A DNA stretch of 64,000 nt from a virus. Lineage: Duplodnaviria > Caudoviricetes. This document shows positions 6,701 to 61,669 of the stretch, in pieces. The position numbers and the translations under genes were made by a program. The stretch spans positions 10,051 through 74,050 of IMG/VR virus record IMGVR_UViG_3300038412_000083. One strand, 5' to 3'. Below the pieces are notes generated by a model, which worked only from the letters and a program-made list of their open reading frames with translations, was not told where the DNA came from and searched no databases. How positions within the stretch are numbered: the first letter of the stretch is position 1; each line of letters opens with the position of its first letter.

Positions 6701-7430
6701 AAGAATCACTATTTTTTTCATACAAATAATTATTTCTATTAAATTCACTTGTAATTTTTAAAGCGGTTTGCGTACTATTACTGTTTATGAATATTGGATT
6801 AGTAGTAGAGTTACCTGCGTTTGTTACTTTCTGTAAATTTGGTATTGCCCCAATAGAATCTGCCACAGGTGGCGCAATCTGATTACCATAAACATCTACG
6901 ATAGTTATTACAATAGAATTTGCAGGCAATGAAGGAACTAAAGCCCTTGCTGTATCTTCTGTACCTACTAATTTATAAAGCAATCCGCTGGTGTCAGCGT
7001 AGATCAAATCACGTCTATAATATCCGCTATCTGCTGAATTAATTATAAAAGATGAAGGTGTAACTTTCGTGTATATAACTCCGTTATAACTCCATTTTAT
7101 AGTATCGTTGATCGTTAAGGTAGAATCTACTAAGGTTATACCTCCTGTAGACATAAGACCGTTGTTTATGGCACTCGCAGCGTTTATTAATTTTGAAAGA
7201 GAATCCCATCTTGAACCCCTCCAAATATAAACTTCATTATTTTTTATTGATAGGCCCCTGTCAGTACTTAATAACTGAATAGTATCTTTTGGGAACAACA
7301 TAGCACTGTCAACTGAGAGTTCTCCATTAAGTTTTACAATGTTGTTCTTATTCCCTATTGTTTGCACCGGCTTCTGAGCCATAGCAGCACAACTTAAAAT
7401 CGTAAAAAGTATGGTTAATATTTTTCTCAT
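3792..7430 (-). CDS. Fibre/spike-like protein with an SGNH (GDSL) esterase domain and an N-terminal signal peptide
   Basis: SGNH blocks FGDSFS, GVSG, LGVND, DGLHP; TGTT(L/I) shaft repeats; MRKILTILFTILSCAAMA-Q signal. Confidence 0.7.
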   Translation of the reverse strand: MRKILTILFTILSCAAMAQKPVQTIGNKNNIVKLNGELSVDSAMLFPKDTIQLLSTDRGLSIKNNEVYIWRGSRWDSLSKLINAASAINNGLMSTGGITLVDSTLTINDTIKWSYNGVIYTKVTPSSFIINSADSGYYRRDLIYADTSGLLYKLVGTEDTARALVPSLPANSIVITIVDVYGNQIAPPVADSIGAIPNLQKVTNAGNSTTNPIFINSNSTQTALKITSEFNRNNYLYEKNSDSLNWAATGFVFKNNVADNPSDEWTGHWLKLMMGSTTNDLKTDGAIISTNGSGGMEFSSNSGRIVFSKGSVAYPYGSQYGLHPYSEMGAFETNGDFTLKKVDSANADINSVVWMDKDTVKKGHLNDITKLNISDTASMLSPYLRKVDSTNSTTGWTTLYQNGLKANITDTLNQNRNPYWKKWVIFGDSFSATSNHYYGRVDTLLHLTGTVTNGVSGNRFYQQSAKLDSILSANPTYFNSFNIASILLGVNDFAASDSLGTVNDSSNRTTCAGYLKHMIESILSANPNIELYVMTPPEANGAGVLYHATNSAGWTLTDLEVLISQICANYGVQCIDLHALANFNLQTIPTLTSDGLHPNYYGSIVLGNIIAQAFAGHNNKGNLYDSKSSIPSLQSVMDKGNSSTDSMKLGGTGTPKSMLELTSSAPVLSFSTTSNSNKYGIIFYNYTTPESFIKMQPNVAELQFNVGRNTTWGGNMTFYTDSVMRAKINDAGIYFYNPLISTSAITGTTITGTTLTGTTLTGTTLNLSGTITSSSNIFLNQTYSGTSYTYNKFNNAGGSFYLGQEGSTAGGFYSGSSAYASVLYSAKPIQLISKGIKELQVDSSGISVIGKAKYTTNPTMTTADSLTVPDKKYVDSVHALSILSASNGLTKTGNDVELGGNLTKTDSLTLNSKELYIMGAGTNKISFTDNGIYSNYSTATQAIKAVNTTGLGVYSSTSTGAPFYAERTDISGTISPMVSLNGFSTSTVAGQGYSIKAGLPTSSGSSSEEANISFIADKISAGSSGASIHFGTKDTSDINGVVHDKVVFNNDGKIQLNQYGQGNFQSTPAYDLSVTSTGNIVERRDTIPLLSFGYGSGLAADTIAASTSAIYGSMYNSGTDTLNITKMKIGLQGTSPSVTVTIYFNDSLGVTAGATKLVNAGSAATDIYTGTTVTSFDNAKIPPGNWVWCQLTSITTKPTYLSVTLIGTKNHN
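5136..5195 (-). repeat. 4 x 15-bp tandem repeat encoding TGTT(I/L) in the fibre shaft
   Basis: aa(g/t)tgttgttcccgt x4 on the plus strand. Confidence 0.85.
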
Positions 7431-8602
7431 ATCGTATTTATGGATATTAATTCTGAATCTTGAATTGGAGTTGAGAATGTTATAGTATTGCTTAAATAAG
7501 TCTTTGTTAAAAATTCTCCGCCGTCCAAAGGATCAATACCAGGAACTTTTATACCACCCCTGTAAACATTCACGTATTTGTTTGCAATAAGACTATTCAC
7601 GAAGGTTGTAGCTCCAACTACTATACCTGCAGAGATTGCTGCTGAAGTGCCAGCTACTACTTCAAGCACATAAGGAACTACCGGAGCCGGAGTGCTACCG
7701 CAATCATAAACATAAGCCGATATAGGAGCGTTTGTATGTGTTCTGCTAAGGGTTACGTTATTATTTAAGATGTCAATTATTTCCTGTATGTAAGTATCAA
7801 CACCACCGCTATCAGAAGCGCATATTCTTTTTTGAGCATGAGCGTACAATGTGTAAGCATACTCATAATCTGCTTTTGCGTTATCGTATTTTTGACAACT
7901 ATTAATCAAAGCATCAAGCCTTGTTTTTAACGTTGTCATATCGGTAAGTAACTGAGCAGAAGTAGGGGGTGTATAAACGTCCACGTTAAATACACTTTCT
8001 AAGTAGTCAACGATGCTTAAATAGCTGTAACTTGTTGACTGATAGGTTATGGTTGCTGTAAAGGTTATAGCATAAGCAGAATCATAATAAGAACCCGCAT
8101 ATTTAAGATCAAAAGATGCTGAATTGGTGCCCGTAATTGTCGCCGCCGACATTACCGCTTGCCATGTACGTACTACCGTTTGCGTGAAACTTCCGGCAGT
8201 GTAAACTGTACTATCATCATAACTTAAAGCCGGAGTAAATACATCAAAATTCTTAGTAAGAACAACTGTTGGTTTTGTATATCCTATCGTGAATGATCGT
8301 GATAACAATGTAGGTACATATCCATCCGCGGAAACTTCATACTTAATGGTGTATTCTCCCTGCTGTAGAAGATTTGCCGAAGTCAATCTAAGGGCTATTG
8401 AAGCAATTAAAGTACCACCTGAGATGTCCGGGGATGTAAACGTTCCCGTCCTTGTTATTCCATCCGGCTGAGTTATAGTAAAAATCCCTGTAGGAACTAC
8501 ACCAACCGGGTAAACAGAGTTATCAGTCAGCTTAAATACAGGGGCAGAGATATTTGTAACATCTGCCTGTACTAAAAATGAAATATAACTTGATAAATCC
8601 AT
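7427..8602 (-). CDS. Putative virion structural protein (collar or fibre-attachment type)
   Basis: 391 aa, T/S/Y-rich beta composition, first gene after a late promoter and upstream of the fibre gene. Confidence 0.5.
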   Translation of the reverse strand: MDLSSYISFLVQADVTNISAPVFKLTDNSVYPVGVVPTGIFTITQPDGITRTGTFTSPDISGGTLIASIALRLTSANLLQQGEYTIKYEVSADGYVPTLLSRSFTIGYTKPTVVLTKNFDVFTPALSYDDSTVYTAGSFTQTVVRTWQAVMSAATITGTNSASFDLKYAGSYYDSAYAITFTATITYQSTSYSYLSIVDYLESVFNVDVYTPPTSAQLLTDMTTLKTRLDALINSCQKYDNAKADYEYAYTLYAHAQKRICASDSGGVDTYIQEIIDILNNNVTLSRTHTNAPISAYVYDCGSTPAPVVPYVLEVVAGTSAAISAGIVVGATTFVNSLIANKYVNVYRGGIKVPGIDPLDGGEFLTKTYLSNTITFSTPIQDSELISINTI

Positions 8603-8617
8603 GTATTTAGATTAAAA

Positions 8618-8671
8618 CAAAGTTAGACGGTTAGGTACATGGTGTACCCTAAAATACGGGGAGAAATATTT
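8618..8671 (-). promoter_or_regulatory. Tripartite late promoter, copy 1
   Basis: Minus strand: AAATATTTCTCCCC (8671-8658), 9 nt, GGTACACCATGTACC (8648-8634), 8 nt, TAACTTTG (8625-8618). Confidence 0.85.
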
Positions 8672-8721
8672 AAAAAACCGCCTTTCGGACTATCGTGCGA
8701 AACGAATGTGATCAGACGGCT
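8672..8721 (-). terminator. Rho-independent terminator with a large structured loop
   Basis: AGCCGTCT...AGGCGGTT stem followed by a T run on the minus strand, after the 295-aa gene. Confidence 0.55.
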
Positions 8722-9696: not shown

Positions 9697-11007
9697 TTAA
9701 GCTGCAACACCTGATTGTTTAGCAACCTGGTTAGCACCAAGTACTTCAAGACCTTGATAGGTTTCCCAATGCGCCTGCCAGTTAGCAACTGTTCCATTTC
9801 CGTTAGGAGATAGAGCACCAGTATGCCATTCACCAATCATTTCATTTCCACCAGGGAAAGAATGTTGTAAATACCTGATCTGAATACGAGGCTGCATTCC
9901 ACCGCCTTCAACATTTACTTTTCCGGTAGGAACCCAATAGATGGCTTTCTTAATAGAATCAGTAAACAACTGAGGATGAGAGAAAATTGGCATCGGTATC
10001 AAAGAATATTTACGGCTACCGAAAGTGTAGCTGTCAACAGTCAAGTCGAGATCCTTGCCGTCAATATTCATACGTCCAGACTGTATGCCACTTGAACCGA
10101 GTGCTTTAAAATAAGTATCGTAAACGATCTTAGAAGCATCAGAACAGTAACCCATGTATTCCAAAGGAGCTTTTGCGGCATTTAATTTAGACGCAAAGTC
10201 GGCCAAATCTGCAGTGACAAGTGTTCCGGCAGTAGCAAGTGTATCAGCAATACCGTAAGTGGTAGCATACTGATCAAGACCTCTTGTTTTTTGAAGCGGT
10301 TTACCGTTGGCATCTACCAGAGCAGGTGAAGCATCACCGTATCTTGTAGCAGAAATTTGTCCACCGATCATTGCGATATCCACAGAGGCGGTCAATGCCT
10401 GTACTTTCTTCGCGTGTTCGTAAACACCATAAAGAGCCTGTCCGTTATAATTGAACTCAATAGGAGTTACCTTTTGAATATCAGTGATAACGTCAATTTC
10501 CCTGAATGCCTGGATTAAGTTTGAGTATTTTGTTACATCATACTTCCTGTTAGTCACAGCATCACTTTCTTCACCTACTACGTTACCGTTGTAAATCAGT
10601 GCATTTCCTGATACCAATGTAAGGGCTGTTCCGTCGCCGGAGTTTATAACCAAAGTATCAACGCCGGAAGAAGTGCTTACACTGTAAACAACTCCATCAT
10701 TACCGGCTGGAAATTTAGCCACATCACCTACACGCCAGAATCCGTTTCCTGCAGTTAAAGCAGTAGTTACGGCAGTAGTACCGGAGCCAGAAGTAGTACC
10801 AACAGTAGTAGCAACGAACAAGTCGCTGTTTACGAAGTGGTGGTATTCCGGCATTTTGCATTTCTTAGTTCTGCCAAGCAACTGCATTGTTTTTAAAAAT
10901 CCTGTATCATTCGCTGCATCTATCAATGCAGGATTGATGTCACGTTGGTCAAGCATATCAATAGCTGACACATACGCCTTATTTAGAGTACCCCTTGTAA
11001 TAGCCAT
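9697..11007 (-). CDS. Major capsid protein
   Basis: 436 aa, follows portal and acidic scaffold, followed by a strong terminator; HK97-type motifs (KYSNLIQAFREIDVITDIQ; RGLDQY). Confidence 0.8.
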   Translation of the reverse strand: MAITRGTLNKAYVSAIDMLDQRDINPALIDAANDTGFLKTMQLLGRTKKCKMPEYHHFVNSDLFVATTVGTTSGSGTTAVTTALTAGNGFWRVGDVAKFPAGNDGVVYSVSTSSGVDTLVINSGDGTALTLVSGNALIYNGNVVGEESDAVTNRKYDVTKYSNLIQAFREIDVITDIQKVTPIEFNYNGQALYGVYEHAKKVQALTASVDIAMIGGQISATRYGDASPALVDANGKPLQKTRGLDQYATTYGIADTLATAGTLVTADLADFASKLNAAKAPLEYMGYCSDASKIVYDTYFKALGSSGIQSGRMNIDGKDLDLTVDSYTFGSRKYSLIPMPIFSHPQLFTDSIKKAIYWVPTGKVNVEGGGMQPRIQIRYLQHSFPGGNEMIGEWHTGALSPNGNGTVANWQAHWETYQGLEVLGANQVAKQSGVAA

Positions 11008-44524: not shown

Positions 44525-44540
44525 TGGCACGCTGTTTGCA
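44525..44540 (+). promoter_or_regulatory. Sigma-54 (-24/-12) type promoter
   Basis: TGGCAC-GCTGT-TTGCA, exact consensus spacing, 20 nt before the first ATG of the operon. Confidence 0.6.
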
Positions 44541-44560
44541 TTATATTGAGCAAAAACAAT

Positions 44561-44653
44561 ATGAAAAAGCTAATAAAACAAATCATCGCAGTTCTCCGTA
44601 ACTGGAACTTTGAAACCCCTTCCAATTTTTCACAATTCAATTCTAAAAATTAA
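44561..44653 (+). CDS. 30-aa leader ORF (not in the ORF track)
   Basis: MKKLIKQIIAVLRNWNFETPSNFSQFNSKN, directly after the promoter. Confidence 0.4.
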   Translation: MKKLIKQIIAVLRNWNFETPSNFSQFNSKN

Positions 44654-44657
44654 TACT

Positions 44658-45911
44658 ATGAGAAAGACAATTAAAAATGTTAATGGCTGGGATGTTCAAA
44701 TATCAACCGGTAAGAATTACAAAAATATTATTTCCTGCACTGCTCAATTTGGAGTATGTGAGGAGCGCAGCGGCTATCAGACATTTTCACACGCTTTATT
44801 TTCTGATCCTTCTTTGACACTTGCGCAAGCTAAACCAGGCGAAAGGGCAACAGAAAAGAAACTCTTGGAAGTGTTTAACGCCGGATTGGCTGAGTTTGAA
44901 AGATTAAAGGAAGCGAACGAATTACCAATTAAAAAAGATGCGTTGGAAATTCAAGTCGGCCAAATTCTATTTTTAAATGGTTACGGACAGGACGAACAAG
45001 GGCACGAAAGACTTGCCGTTTATGAAATAGAGGGGAGCAGGTACAAAACCGTAAATCTTGAAACACTTACTTTATCAACAGAAGAACACATTAGGCCAAT
45101 TGAAGAAAAATTTGGCATCGGTATTTATTACAAAAAAGGCGATGTGATAGAAGTTAATGAAGTAAAAGCCGCAGTAGCAGCCGCAAGAGTAAAAGTAGAA
45201 TTAAAAGAAAAGGCAGACAAAGAACAGCGCGAAGCCGCCCAAATTGAGAGATCAGAAAAAATAAAAAAGGGCGCTGAGATTATTAACGCAATCCCGGAAG
45301 GCGTAAGCCATGCGATCGTTGCAAATCTTATGGAAGATGATAGCGACATCCAAAGCGATTATTTTGCAAGTCATTCAACACAAACAGTTTTTTTAGCTTT
45401 TAGTAAACATGGCCGGGATTTATTCGACGAAATGAGAAAAGCCGCCGCCAATTGTCCTATTGAAGAAATAAATAAATACAGTGTAAAGCCAGAAAAACCA
45501 GAAGGAGAAAACGAATTTTGGACACCGGAAGACGAACACCGCGAAAAGTATAGTATGGGATCTGGTTATTATTTAGGCAGCCAGTACAGAAGCGGCTGGG
45601 AAATAAGTAAGACTAATATAGACGGCCGCAGCCTGGAAGCCTTACAAATTGCAGCCGCCGAAGGTCGCTATTTTATCCCGGAACAAAGCGAACAGACGGA
45701 AGTTAAAAACTATTCTCCAGTTGAAGTAAAGGCCGGAACTGTTCAAATAATAGATTACAGCGAAAAGGCGATCGCCGTAATTGGTGACACAAAACCGATA
45801 AAAGATAAATTAAAAGAATTGGGGGGTCGTTTCAATTTTCGTCTTTCTTGTGGCGCTGGCTGGATATTTCCAAAGACTAAATTAACCGAATTACAAAGTG
45901 CATTAGTCTAA
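44658..45911 (+). CDS. Multi-domain leading-region protein (Bacteroidota 'fusion protein' type); start moved from 44610
   Basis: DDSDIQSDYFASH...EHREKYSMGSGYYLG module and C-terminal IIDYSEKAIAVIGDTKPIKDKLKELGGRFN...GWIF module. Confidence 0.6.
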   Translation: MRKTIKNVNGWDVQISTGKNYKNIISCTAQFGVCEERSGYQTFSHALFSDPSLTLAQAKPGERATEKKLLEVFNAGLAEFERLKEANELPIKKDALEIQVGQILFLNGYGQDEQGHERLAVYEIEGSRYKTVNLETLTLSTEEHIRPIEEKFGIGIYYKKGDVIEVNEVKAAVAAARVKVELKEKADKEQREAAQIERSEKIKKGAEIINAIPEGVSHAIVANLMEDDSDIQSDYFASHSTQTVFLAFSKHGRDLFDEMRKAAANCPIEEINKYSVKPEKPEGENEFWTPEDEHREKYSMGSGYYLGSQYRSGWEISKTNIDGRSLEALQIAAAEGRYFIPEQSEQTEVKNYSPVEVKAGTVQIIDYSEKAIAVIGDTKPIKDKLKELGGRFNFRLSCGAGWIFPKTKLTELQSALV

Positions 45912-45961
45912 CTGATGAGCCGTAAAGCGGCGAAACTTGGCCTACGGGCTAAGTCTTAGAT
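45906..45961 (+). ncRNA. Type I hammerhead ribozyme
   Basis: Stem I TCTAA/TTAGA; core CTGATGA; stem II GCCG-TAAAG-CGGC; GAAA; stem III CTTGGC/GCTAAG; GTC cleavage triplet (45953-45955). Confidence 0.85.
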
Positions 45962-45974
45962 AAAAATAAATACC

Positions 45975-47459
45975 ATGTTTAACAGCGAATTTTTCCCCAC
46001 TCCCTTAGAAGTTATTGGAAAAATGACTTGGGGGCTTAACCTTAACGGCAAAGTAATTTTGGAACCCGAAGCCGGCAAAGGTGATATAGTTGATTATCTT
46101 AATAATGCAGGGGCCAATGTATTAGCCTGTGAATTAAATAAAGACCTTCAGCAGATCATTAAAACAAAGTGTAAACTATTAGCCGAAGATTTTTTAACCG
46201 TCACAAGCGACCAAATAAGCCACATTGACTATATTATTATGAATCCGCCATTTAGTAAGGCAGTAGAACATATTTTACACGCTTACCAGGTCGCGCCCAA
46301 TGGTTGCAAGATCGTTGCCCTTTGCAACGCTTCTAATTTAGAAAACCTTTACACCAACACACGTAAGGAATTAAACGCGATTGTTGAGAATTACGGACAA
46401 GTGCAAAACCTGGGCGATTGCTTTAAGATGGCAGAAAGACAAACAGCCGTAAATATTTCAATGATAACCATAAATAAACCCGGCGAAAGCTATAAAAGCG
46501 AATTTGAGGGATTTTTTACCGATGAAGAACCAGAGGAAGCTGGGGAAATTGGGTTAATGAGTTACAATGTAGTTCGGGATCTTGTAAACAGGTATGTTGC
46601 AGCCGTTAAACTGTATGATGAACACTTGCAAACAGGTGTAAAAATGAACAGTCTTTTAAATAACTTTTATGGCGAAGGCTTAACATTTACCTGCACAGAG
46701 CAAGGAGCGCCAAAATTAAGGAACGAATTTAAAAAGGACTTGCAAAAATCAGGGTGGAAATTTATATTCAATAAAATGGATATGCAAAAGCACATGACAA
46801 GCGGACTAAAGAAAGATATTAATAAATTTGTTGAGCAGCAAAGCGAAATACCTTTTACAATGAAAAATATTTATTTCATGCTTGATATGGTGATTCAAAC
46901 ACACGGCCAAAGGATGGATAAAGCAATTTTGGAGGTATTCGACAAGATAACCGAACACCACCACGACAACAGGCATTTTGTAAAAGGGTGGAAAACAAAC
47001 AGCCATTTTCTAGTTGGCAAAAAGTTCATCCTTCCTTACCAGATCAACCCGGCCAAAGAATACGGTTATACATCCGATTCTTACAACAGCTTACGGCAAT
47101 CTTATGACGGTATAGTGTCAGATTTTGAAAAAGCCTTGTGTTATGTTACCGGGAAAGATTACAGCGATATAAAGCCGCTCAACCATTGCATAAATAGAAA
47201 TGATTACGGCGAATGGTACGACAGCGAATTTTTTAAGTACAAAGGCTATAAAAACGGGAATATGCACTTTGAGTTCAATAACGCTGATGTGTGGGCCAAA
47301 TTTAATCAAAGAGTTTCTAAATTAAAAGGTTATCCACTATTTGAAGGGAAGGCGCAAACTAAATACCAAGACAGGCAGACAGGAAGGGCACAACAAAAGA
47401 AAGCAAACCCGGCACACATGTATAAACCAACCGTTCTTTTTGAAATTAAAGTAGCTTAA
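45975..47459 (+). CDS. N6-adenine DNA methyltransferase fused to DUF4942
   Basis: FFPTP, ILEPEAGKG, IMNPPF; C-terminal KGYKNGNMHFEF. Confidence 0.8.
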   Translation: MFNSEFFPTPLEVIGKMTWGLNLNGKVILEPEAGKGDIVDYLNNAGANVLACELNKDLQQIIKTKCKLLAEDFLTVTSDQISHIDYIIMNPPFSKAVEHILHAYQVAPNGCKIVALCNASNLENLYTNTRKELNAIVENYGQVQNLGDCFKMAERQTAVNISMITINKPGESYKSEFEGFFTDEEPEEAGEIGLMSYNVVRDLVNRYVAAVKLYDEHLQTGVKMNSLLNNFYGEGLTFTCTEQGAPKLRNEFKKDLQKSGWKFIFNKMDMQKHMTSGLKKDINKFVEQQSEIPFTMKNIYFMLDMVIQTHGQRMDKAILEVFDKITEHHHDNRHFVKGWKTNSHFLVGKKFILPYQINPAKEYGYTSDSYNSLRQSYDGIVSDFEKALCYVTGKDYSDIKPLNHCINRNDYGEWYDSEFFKYKGYKNGNMHFEFNNADVWAKFNQRVSKLKGYPLFEGKAQTKYQDRQTGRAQQKKANPAHMYKPTVLFEIKVA

Positions 47460-47502: not shown

Positions 47503-47598
47503 ATGAACATATCAAAAACAACACAACCACCGGAAAGACCAGACTTCAACGCCTGGATCAATTACATCTTTAAACTTATTCACAACCTTCAAAAATAA
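47503..47598 (+). CDS. 31-aa micropeptide, copy 1 (not in the ORF track)
   Basis: MNISKTTQPPERPDFNAWINYIFKLIHNLQK. Confidence 0.7.
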   Translation: MNISKTTQPPERPDFNAWINYIFKLIHNLQK

Positions 47599-47625
47599 TT
47601 ATCTTAAAAAATAAAAAACACAATC

Positions 47626-61549: not shown

Positions 61550-61669
61550 TTGCGTATGCAGGACTCGAACCTGCGACCTACTGAACCGAACCTTAATAGT
61601 TTTTTAAGGTTTCCTCTACCACAGGACTTTACCGAATACAATCGCTCTAACCAACTGAGCTAATACGCA
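61550..61669 (-). tRNA. tRNA-like gene with a 46-nt insertion in the anticodon loop (anticodon TCG if the insert is removed); no encoded CCA
   Basis: Acceptor TGCGTAT/ATACGCA; D arm GCTC-AGTTGGTTA-GAGC; T arm GCAGG-TTCGAGT-CCTGC; variable loop AGGTC. Confidence 0.75.

Follow-up and report, generated by a model that had tools for sequence, protein, structure and literature searches.

A probable self-cleaving type I hammerhead ribozyme at the boundary of two phage genes, an apparent member of a large phage subfamily

Hammerhead ribozymes located between genes of phages and prophages, including tandem copies that flank single genes, have already been described (PMC3088659). In that work, tandem prophage hammerheads cleaved polycistronic transcripts of ~2 kb in vitro and in E. 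coli, phage and prophage copies were reported near integrase and ardA genes, and a halovirus copy was placed 13 nt before a start codon (PMC3088659). Thousands of bacterial and phage hammerheads are known, and a 2019 review describes their function as undetermined while citing the same RNA-processing hypothesis (PMC6765202), namely, that the ribozyme cuts a co-transcript and thereby separates an upstream RNA from a downstream mRNA with a 5'-OH end (PMC3088659, PMC6765202). The initial annotation of the DNA analyzed here placed a hammerhead between two phage genes and stated that such intergenic copies occur in phages in a largely unknown role.

The window, that is, the whole stretch of 64,000 nucleotides that was analyzed, covers positions 10051 to 74050 of an IMG/VR virus record that is 74,050 bp long and has direct terminal repeats. 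The ribozyme lies in a run of genes on the + strand that encode a single-stranded DNA-binding protein (SSB), a ClpP-like protease, a winged-helix protein, a 417-aa protein, a 494-aa methyltransferase, several small ORFs and a tyrosine recombinase. This module is non-structural and, judging by the predicted SSB, winged-helix protein, methylase and tyrosine recombinase, early expression of the genes that flank the ribozyme is plausible. The upstream gene (44658-45911, +) encodes 417 aa when read from the first ATG (the start in the ORF list is a TTG at 44610), and its product belongs to an uncharacterized family with at least 1400 homologs, mostly from Bacteroidota; given the origin of the named homologs, a Bacteroidota host is likely. 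In some relatives of this protein, the C-terminal domain scores as LPD26. The downstream gene (45975-47459, +) encodes 494 aa that consist of an N6-adenine DNA methyltransferase N-terminal domain and a DUF4942 domain; the methyltransferase N-terminus is clearly identifiable by an NPPF motif and by matches to PHROG methyltransferases. The sole BLAST match to cultured phages covers 223 nt of the methyltransferase gene and comes from a Leeuwenhoekiella phage.

Several further features of this region were observed. Giant polyvalent proteins encoded by phages and conjugative elements contain modules that resemble the products of both ribozyme-flanking genes, as seen from matches to PHROG families of 2,000-3,900 aa for the methylase and from relatives with LPD26 for the upstream protein. 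Two 31-codon ORFs, at 44562-44657 (+) and 47504-47599 (+), each precede a larger gene on the same strand (read by eye). A match to the sigma-54 -24/-12 consensus, TGGCAC-N5-TTGCA, is located at 44526-44542 (+), ~115 nt 5' of the ATG of the 417-aa gene, and would be a candidate promoter of the transcript cut by the ribozyme.

The complete hammerhead, with one flanking A on each side of stem I, spans 45905-45962 on the + strand, as delineated by direct reading of the bases, by a structural descriptor and by a covariance model of the family (model R1, see below). The 5' strand of stem I (45906-45911) pairs with 45956-45961 over 6 bp, and its three core-proximal bases (45909-45911) form the TAA with which the upstream gene ends. 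It is followed by the catalytic core segment C3-A9, CUGAUGA (45912-45918), which matches the core consensus given in PMC3088659; by the stem II hairpin (45919-45931), in which 45919-45922 and 45928-45931 form 4 bp around a 5-nt loop with U as the first and A as the third base, both as in the family; and by the core bases G12, A13 and A14 (45932-45934). The stem III hairpin (45935-45954) consists of 8 bp, the A15.1-U16.1 pair and 7 further pairs, formed by 45935-45942 and 45947-45954 and closed by a UACG loop. C17 is base 45955, and the scissile bond is predicted on its 3' side from the hammerhead consensus position; the 3' strand of stem I (45956-45961) would then form the 5'-OH end of the downstream RNA, within an A/U-rich methyltransferase leader of 19 nt (45956-45974). 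All 13 core positions (45912-45918, 45932-45935, 45954 and 45955) are intact, that is, each element of the core definition quoted in PMC3088659 (C3 U4 G5 A6 N7 G8 A9, G12 A13 A14, A15.1-U16.1, H17) is present, together with helices of 6, 4 and 8 bp for stems I, II and III. Stems II and III each end in a loop and stem I is open-ended, so the ribozyme is of type I. The base-by-base reading bears out the initial description of a complete core with three stems in the type I arrangement, of the upstream TAA within stem I, and of a predicted cut after C45955, 19 nt before the methylase ATG at 45975. One deviation from the family is the outermost pair of stem I, which is G.U at this locus vs G-C in 43 of the 44 aligned family members.

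On the two strands of the complete genome (74,050 bp), a type I descriptor yielded a single match, the ribozyme site, and only 2 of 300 dinucleotide shuffles contained a match even with relaxed stem lengths. At the gathering thresholds, an Rfam scan of the window detected no hammerhead and returned only a tRNA-like match; in E-value mode, the hammerhead was the sole ribozyme-like match in the whole window. The three Rfam hammerhead models, which are independent of the pattern and the model that we built from this element, all score below their thresholds at the site: RF00163 reaches 24.7 bits vs a gathering score of 34 (E 3.7e-5 for the genome), with the full model aligned (positions 1-45), RF00008 reaches 27.8 bits vs 48.5, and RF03152 (RAGATH-1 hammerhead) 25.2 bits vs 56.3; the scan with the latter two models gave an E-value of 2.7e-4. 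An assignment to type III on the strength of the RF00008 match was rejected because that alignment is mis-threaded and uses a GUC inside stem I. The Rfam scan that the initial annotation had proposed as a check thus gives sub-threshold matches of all three models at the site and none at the gathering threshold. An Rfam scan of two other viral contigs recovered, at E 0.1, only one of their verified family copies (four pattern copies in L061 and five in L062). Because verified copies also mostly fail, the low score at our site reflects the coverage of the models and not a defect of the element, and the Rfam hammerhead models overlook most members of the subfamily, which is abundant in phages.

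The tRNA-like Rfam match is located at 61550-61669 (-) and scores 51.2 bits; the acceptor, D and T arms are intact, and ~53 nt stand in place of 7 anticodon-loop positions of the model. ARAGORN made no tRNA call in the window, this site included, and the fold of the ~53-nt insert is not distinctive. The sequence could represent a tRNA that is interrupted or carries an intron, or else a remnant of an attachment site that resembles a tRNA.

Relatives of the ribozyme were collected with a search pattern derived from the element itself, in which the three core-adjacent pairs of stem I, the core, CGAAAC and GUC-UUA were fixed and the remainder of all stems was left free. The pattern matches at least 144 copies in at least 120 contigs of the viral collection; we estimate that chance alone would produce fewer than 1 match in a collection this large. 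Only 12 occurrences were counted in 185,579 species genomes, and most of these are in Bacteroidota (Daejeonella, Mucilaginibacter, Paraflavitalea and Bacteroidia MAGs) or in short MAG contigs. An alignment was made of 44 unique, gap-free copies of 46 nt with 4 flanking bases each. When the hammerhead structure is imposed on these copies, standard pairs occupy 100% of the 704 cells, and all 10 variable stem pairs covary through compensatory changes; in controls with a slid register, only 29-38% of the cells are paired. Outside the search pattern, the A that precedes stem I (A1) and the first U of loop II (U19) are invariant, and the outer G-C pair of stem I and the A that follows stem I (A54) are conserved in at least 90% of the copies. 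The leading A, the opening G, the loop II U and the trailing A are all present at our locus. The features that define the subfamily in sequence (54 nt; a 6-bp stem I with UAA/UUA at the core; a 4-bp stem II with a 5-nt loop; flanking As) are likewise found there, the element being the source of the pattern.

In natural hammerheads, a tertiary contact between stem I and loop II allows cleavage to be fast when Mg2+ is low. At the locus, neither an internal loop nor a pseudoknot that would make such a contact is evident. The conserved flanking As and the loop II U are located where hammerheads form it, and they may play that role here.

The covariance model built from the 44-copy alignment, R1, has a single match in the window, at 45905-45962, with 53.6 bits and an E-value of 6e-10, a score that is partly circular as the seed pattern was derived from this element, with the free stems and the additional conserved positions being the non-circular part. 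Across the family, R1 detects 181 copies in 100 sources with scores of 35-78 bits, and the locus falls within this range. In L062 (IMGVR_UViG_3300049491_000350), which carries five pattern copies and further R1 matches, the same conserved stretch of ~27 nt follows stem I each time; hence the repeated unit is longer than the ribozyme, and it may hold a second element. Another contig, L117, shows mixed topologies on its - strand, with eight type I matches to R1 and type III-like Rfam matches at 8622-8676, 7914-7965 and 7064-7123.

The placement of the family members relative to genes is strongly patterned. Among the matches listed, there are 137 non-redundant family loci, 72 of which have an upstream ORF of at least 80 codons. 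In 58 of these 72, the upstream ORF ends within the ribozyme, at the UAA of stem I (28 loci), at a UAG atop stem I (16) or at a UGA in the core (14); the remaining 14 upstream ORFs end 6-13 nt before the UAA. The distance from the cut to the next ORF has a median of 26 nt and is between 15 and 35 nt in 82% of the loci. Two or more copies are present in 52 of the 120 loci listed, always on one strand and at a median spacing of 586 nt, or about one small gene. The neighboring genes are diverse, mostly unannotated, and small (medians of ~90 and 106 aa). Downstream of the 112 family members listed there are diverse small ORFs, including 2 for ArdC-N and 3 for DUF6876 proteins, and 0 methyltransferase genes. 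Our locus shares the subfamily layout, in which the upstream ORF stops inside the ribozyme or no more than 13 nt from it and the next ORF on the same strand begins ~16-30 nt past the cut; here the TAA is in stem I and the ATG 19 nt past the cut. The locus is atypical in that the ribozyme is the sole copy in the genome and is flanked by unusually large genes. The ribozyme apparently belongs to a large phage subfamily, many of whose hosts appear to be Bacteroidota, that marks the boundaries of co-directional genes. Overlap with a stop codon was not found described in PMC3088659, where the phrase 'stop codon' has 0 occurrences.

Folding predictions add a complication. The minimum free energy of the region is -24.7 kcal/mol, compared to -20.5 kcal/mol for the hammerhead secondary structure, a difference of 4.2. 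The minimum free energy fold retains stems II and III (z = -4.2), and stem I is displaced by a predicted hairpin (45901-45917, +) in which the last codons of the upstream gene pair with core bases C3-G8. Stems II and III contribute -18.3 kcal/mol, and the isolated stem I duplex only about -3 kcal/mol. We considered the competing hairpin as a conserved folding switch and rejected this possibility, given that it is predicted in 7 of 138 family copies, some of them duplicates, vs 2.6 expected; the hairpin is probably incidental. A search of the spacer for an intrinsic terminator or a sigma-70 promoter found none at the ribozyme, and stem III is not followed by a U tract.

Taken together, these observations make it quite likely, as far as this can be judged from sequence, that the element is a genuine self-cleaving type I hammerhead of a phage gene-boundary subfamily that splits a co-transcript. 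Under the proposed mechanism, the 417-aa gene and the methyltransferase gene would be transcribed on a single RNA. A ribosome completing the upstream ORF would melt the 45901-45917 hairpin, and the ribozyme would fold in the 63-nt spacer and cut after C45955. The upstream mRNA would then end in a 2',3'-cyclic phosphate right behind the stable stems II and III, which would provide terminator-like protection. The weak 6-bp stem I would melt after the cut, and the methyltransferase mRNA would be freed with a 5'-OH and a free, A/U-rich leader of 19 nt, compared with the family median of 26 nt. In model bacteria, 5'-OH ends are poor substrates for the RNase E/J pathways that depend on a 5'-monophosphate. 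Overall, the two cistrons would become independent of each other in stability and translation without RNA polymerase being stopped. Co-transcription and cleavage in vivo are presumptions of this scheme, as are the size of any change in expression and the direction of that change. For this genome, which has only one copy, we rejected the possibility that paired ribozymes excise a circular RNA.

A more specific view, which we offer as a tentative and rather speculative extension, is that the subfamily is a modular 'stop-and-cut' cassette, combining stops in three frames, cleavage gated by translation and replacement of a terminator with read-through. In the subfamily, the 5' strand of the ribozyme contains stop codons in all three frames, a UAG atop stem I (in copies with a U ahead of the conserved AG), the UAA in stem I and the UGA in the core, so that any upstream gene can end inside the cassette. 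A terminating ribosome might keep stem I and the core open, in which case cleavage would be gated by upstream translation, and the cassette might stand in for an intrinsic terminator, giving a protected 3' end while the polymerase reads on. That stop codon and ribozyme overlap across the family suggests that the termination of translation and the folding of the ribozyme may be connected. If this extension holds, the release of the methyltransferase mRNA would be tied to translation of the preceding gene.

Comparison of orthologous loci bears on whether the ribozyme is tied to either of its neighbors. A hammerhead is absent from the methylase homologs L002-L010 of IMG/VR, as assessed with Rfam, a core-motif listing and model R1; five of these (L002-L006) are 32-59% identical to our methylase, and the methylase gene of L002 shares its first 8 nt with the end of the ORF before it. 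L132 is the closest relative in which the two genes occur as a pair (the upstream protein is 65% and the methylase N-terminus 60% identical); its 61-nt spacer has an 8-bp GC-rich hairpin and a weak U-rich tail in place of a hammerhead. In L134, L135, L137 and L139, the homolog of the upstream gene is followed by a GC hairpin and a U run that resemble an intrinsic terminator; these four spacers are nearly identical and represent about one lineage. A different type I hammerhead, with distinct stems II and III, overlies the TGA stop codon of the upstream-gene homolog in L133, and 20 nt separate its predicted cut from the start codon, an ATG, of an unrelated gene of 119 aa. More distant relatives of the upstream gene have short, unstructured gaps at this spot. 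A single-sequence search of IMG/VR with the upstream protein gave no match, and a profile search gave 58 loci, 0 of which have a hammerhead at the 3' end of the gene; hammerhead-like matches occur elsewhere in two of the 58, L181 and L149. The match in L149 (1347-1399, +) is weaker (23.4 bits, 5-bp stem I) and lies ~100 nt 5' of a distant homolog of the 417-aa gene. Because a terminator-like hairpin or a hammerhead fills the spot after the upstream gene in relatives, this spot appears to be a recurrent transcript-boundary site. The link between ribozyme and methylase is not conserved.

These comparisons weigh against a reading in which the ribozyme is a dedicated device that times the expression of the methyltransferase mRNA or stabilizes it for anti-restriction. 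The notion has its attractions: the downstream gene does encode a DNA methyltransferase, relatives of both neighbors match modules of polyvalent proteins, ArdC-N genes follow two of the 112 family members listed, and ardA is flanked by hammerheads in the earlier report (PMC3088659). However, methylase homologs lack the hammerhead, the same gene pair has a hairpin instead in L132, the hammerhead of L133 follows the same upstream gene and precedes an unrelated one, and the downstream genes of the family are diverse, with no methylase among those listed. We therefore consider such a device unlikely. The initial proposal that cleavage frees a methylase mRNA with a 5'-OH end fits the layout of the family as far as the cleavage and the freed mRNA are concerned; the specific tie to the methylase, and with it the tuning of methylase stability or timing for anti-restriction, found no support.

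The terminator-like hairpins of the relatives raise another alternative, namely, that the element is mainly a stable RNA structure (a 3'-end protector, a partial terminator or an RNase site) and that self-cleavage is weak or irrelevant here. Plain hairpins and terminators at the same spot, the stability of stems II and III on their own, the predicted sequestration of the core by the competing hairpin and the G.U pair at the outer end of stem I are all compatible with this explanation. Nevertheless, a mere hairpin has no need of 13 intact core positions, the family-conserved positions beside stem I and in loop II have been kept, and the U tract is missing, so a purely structural role seems very unlikely. 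We give hardly any weight to the idea that the ribozyme is chiefly a shared boundary sequence for the shuffling of cassettes between phages, or a selfish passenger, with the benefit of RNA cleavage being secondary. The sporadic occurrence among orthologous loci, the near-identical copies within one contig (L061, L062) and the flanking of single small genes could be understood in this way, but the strict compensatory changes in all stems and the confinement of the copies to one strand per contig, co-directional with the ORFs, point to selection on RNA rather than DNA, and this genome has only one copy. Finally, a functionless chance or decayed look-alike, which could be suspected from the sub-threshold Rfam scores and from the lack of conservation at orthologous loci, is extremely improbable given the rarity of matches in shuffled sequences even under relaxed settings, the perfect core, and the fit to the family both in positions left unconstrained by the pattern and in layout (a stop codon in stem I and 19 nt to the ATG).

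We therefore return to the co-transcript-splitting hammerhead as the preferred reading. The relatives of the locus provide two natural comparisons: members of one gene family have a hammerhead behind them in two lineages and a terminator-like hairpin in other lineages, and the same pair of genes is found both with the ribozyme and lacking it. Because these with/without comparisons exist in nature, the possibility that the ribozyme is a read-through substitute for a terminator is directly testable. The statistics of stop-codon overlap and the alternation of terminator and hammerhead at one orthologous site may be new points, both of them modest.

Among the Rfam families, RF00163 (Hammerhead_1) shares the type I topology with the locus, which scores below the gathering threshold of this model as do most copies of the subfamily. 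RF03152 is likewise of type I and aligns end to end with the locus, and both combine a stem I that is short (5-6 bp) and A/U-rich with a long, tetraloop-capped stem III; the upstream accessory hairpin of RF03152 is matched at the locus only by a weak 4-bp A/U helix inside the coding sequence, and stem II is a normal 4-bp hairpin in contrast to the minimal one of RF03152. The intrinsic terminators or stabilizer hairpins of L132, L134, L135, L137 and L139 hold the equivalent position and would likewise leave a structured 3' end on the upstream mRNA, whereas at our locus this end would arise by predicted cleavage, the polymerase could continue, and there is no U tract. The closest described systems are the hammerheads of Perreault et al. 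2011 (PMC3088659), with which the locus shares the catalytic core, the three-way junction, the position in a co-directional phage operon just upstream of a start codon, and the neighborhood of integrase and anti-restriction-type genes; it differs from them in being a single copy between two large genes. The ribozyme itself adds no new kind of element and is a member of the already described phage gene-boundary hammerheads.
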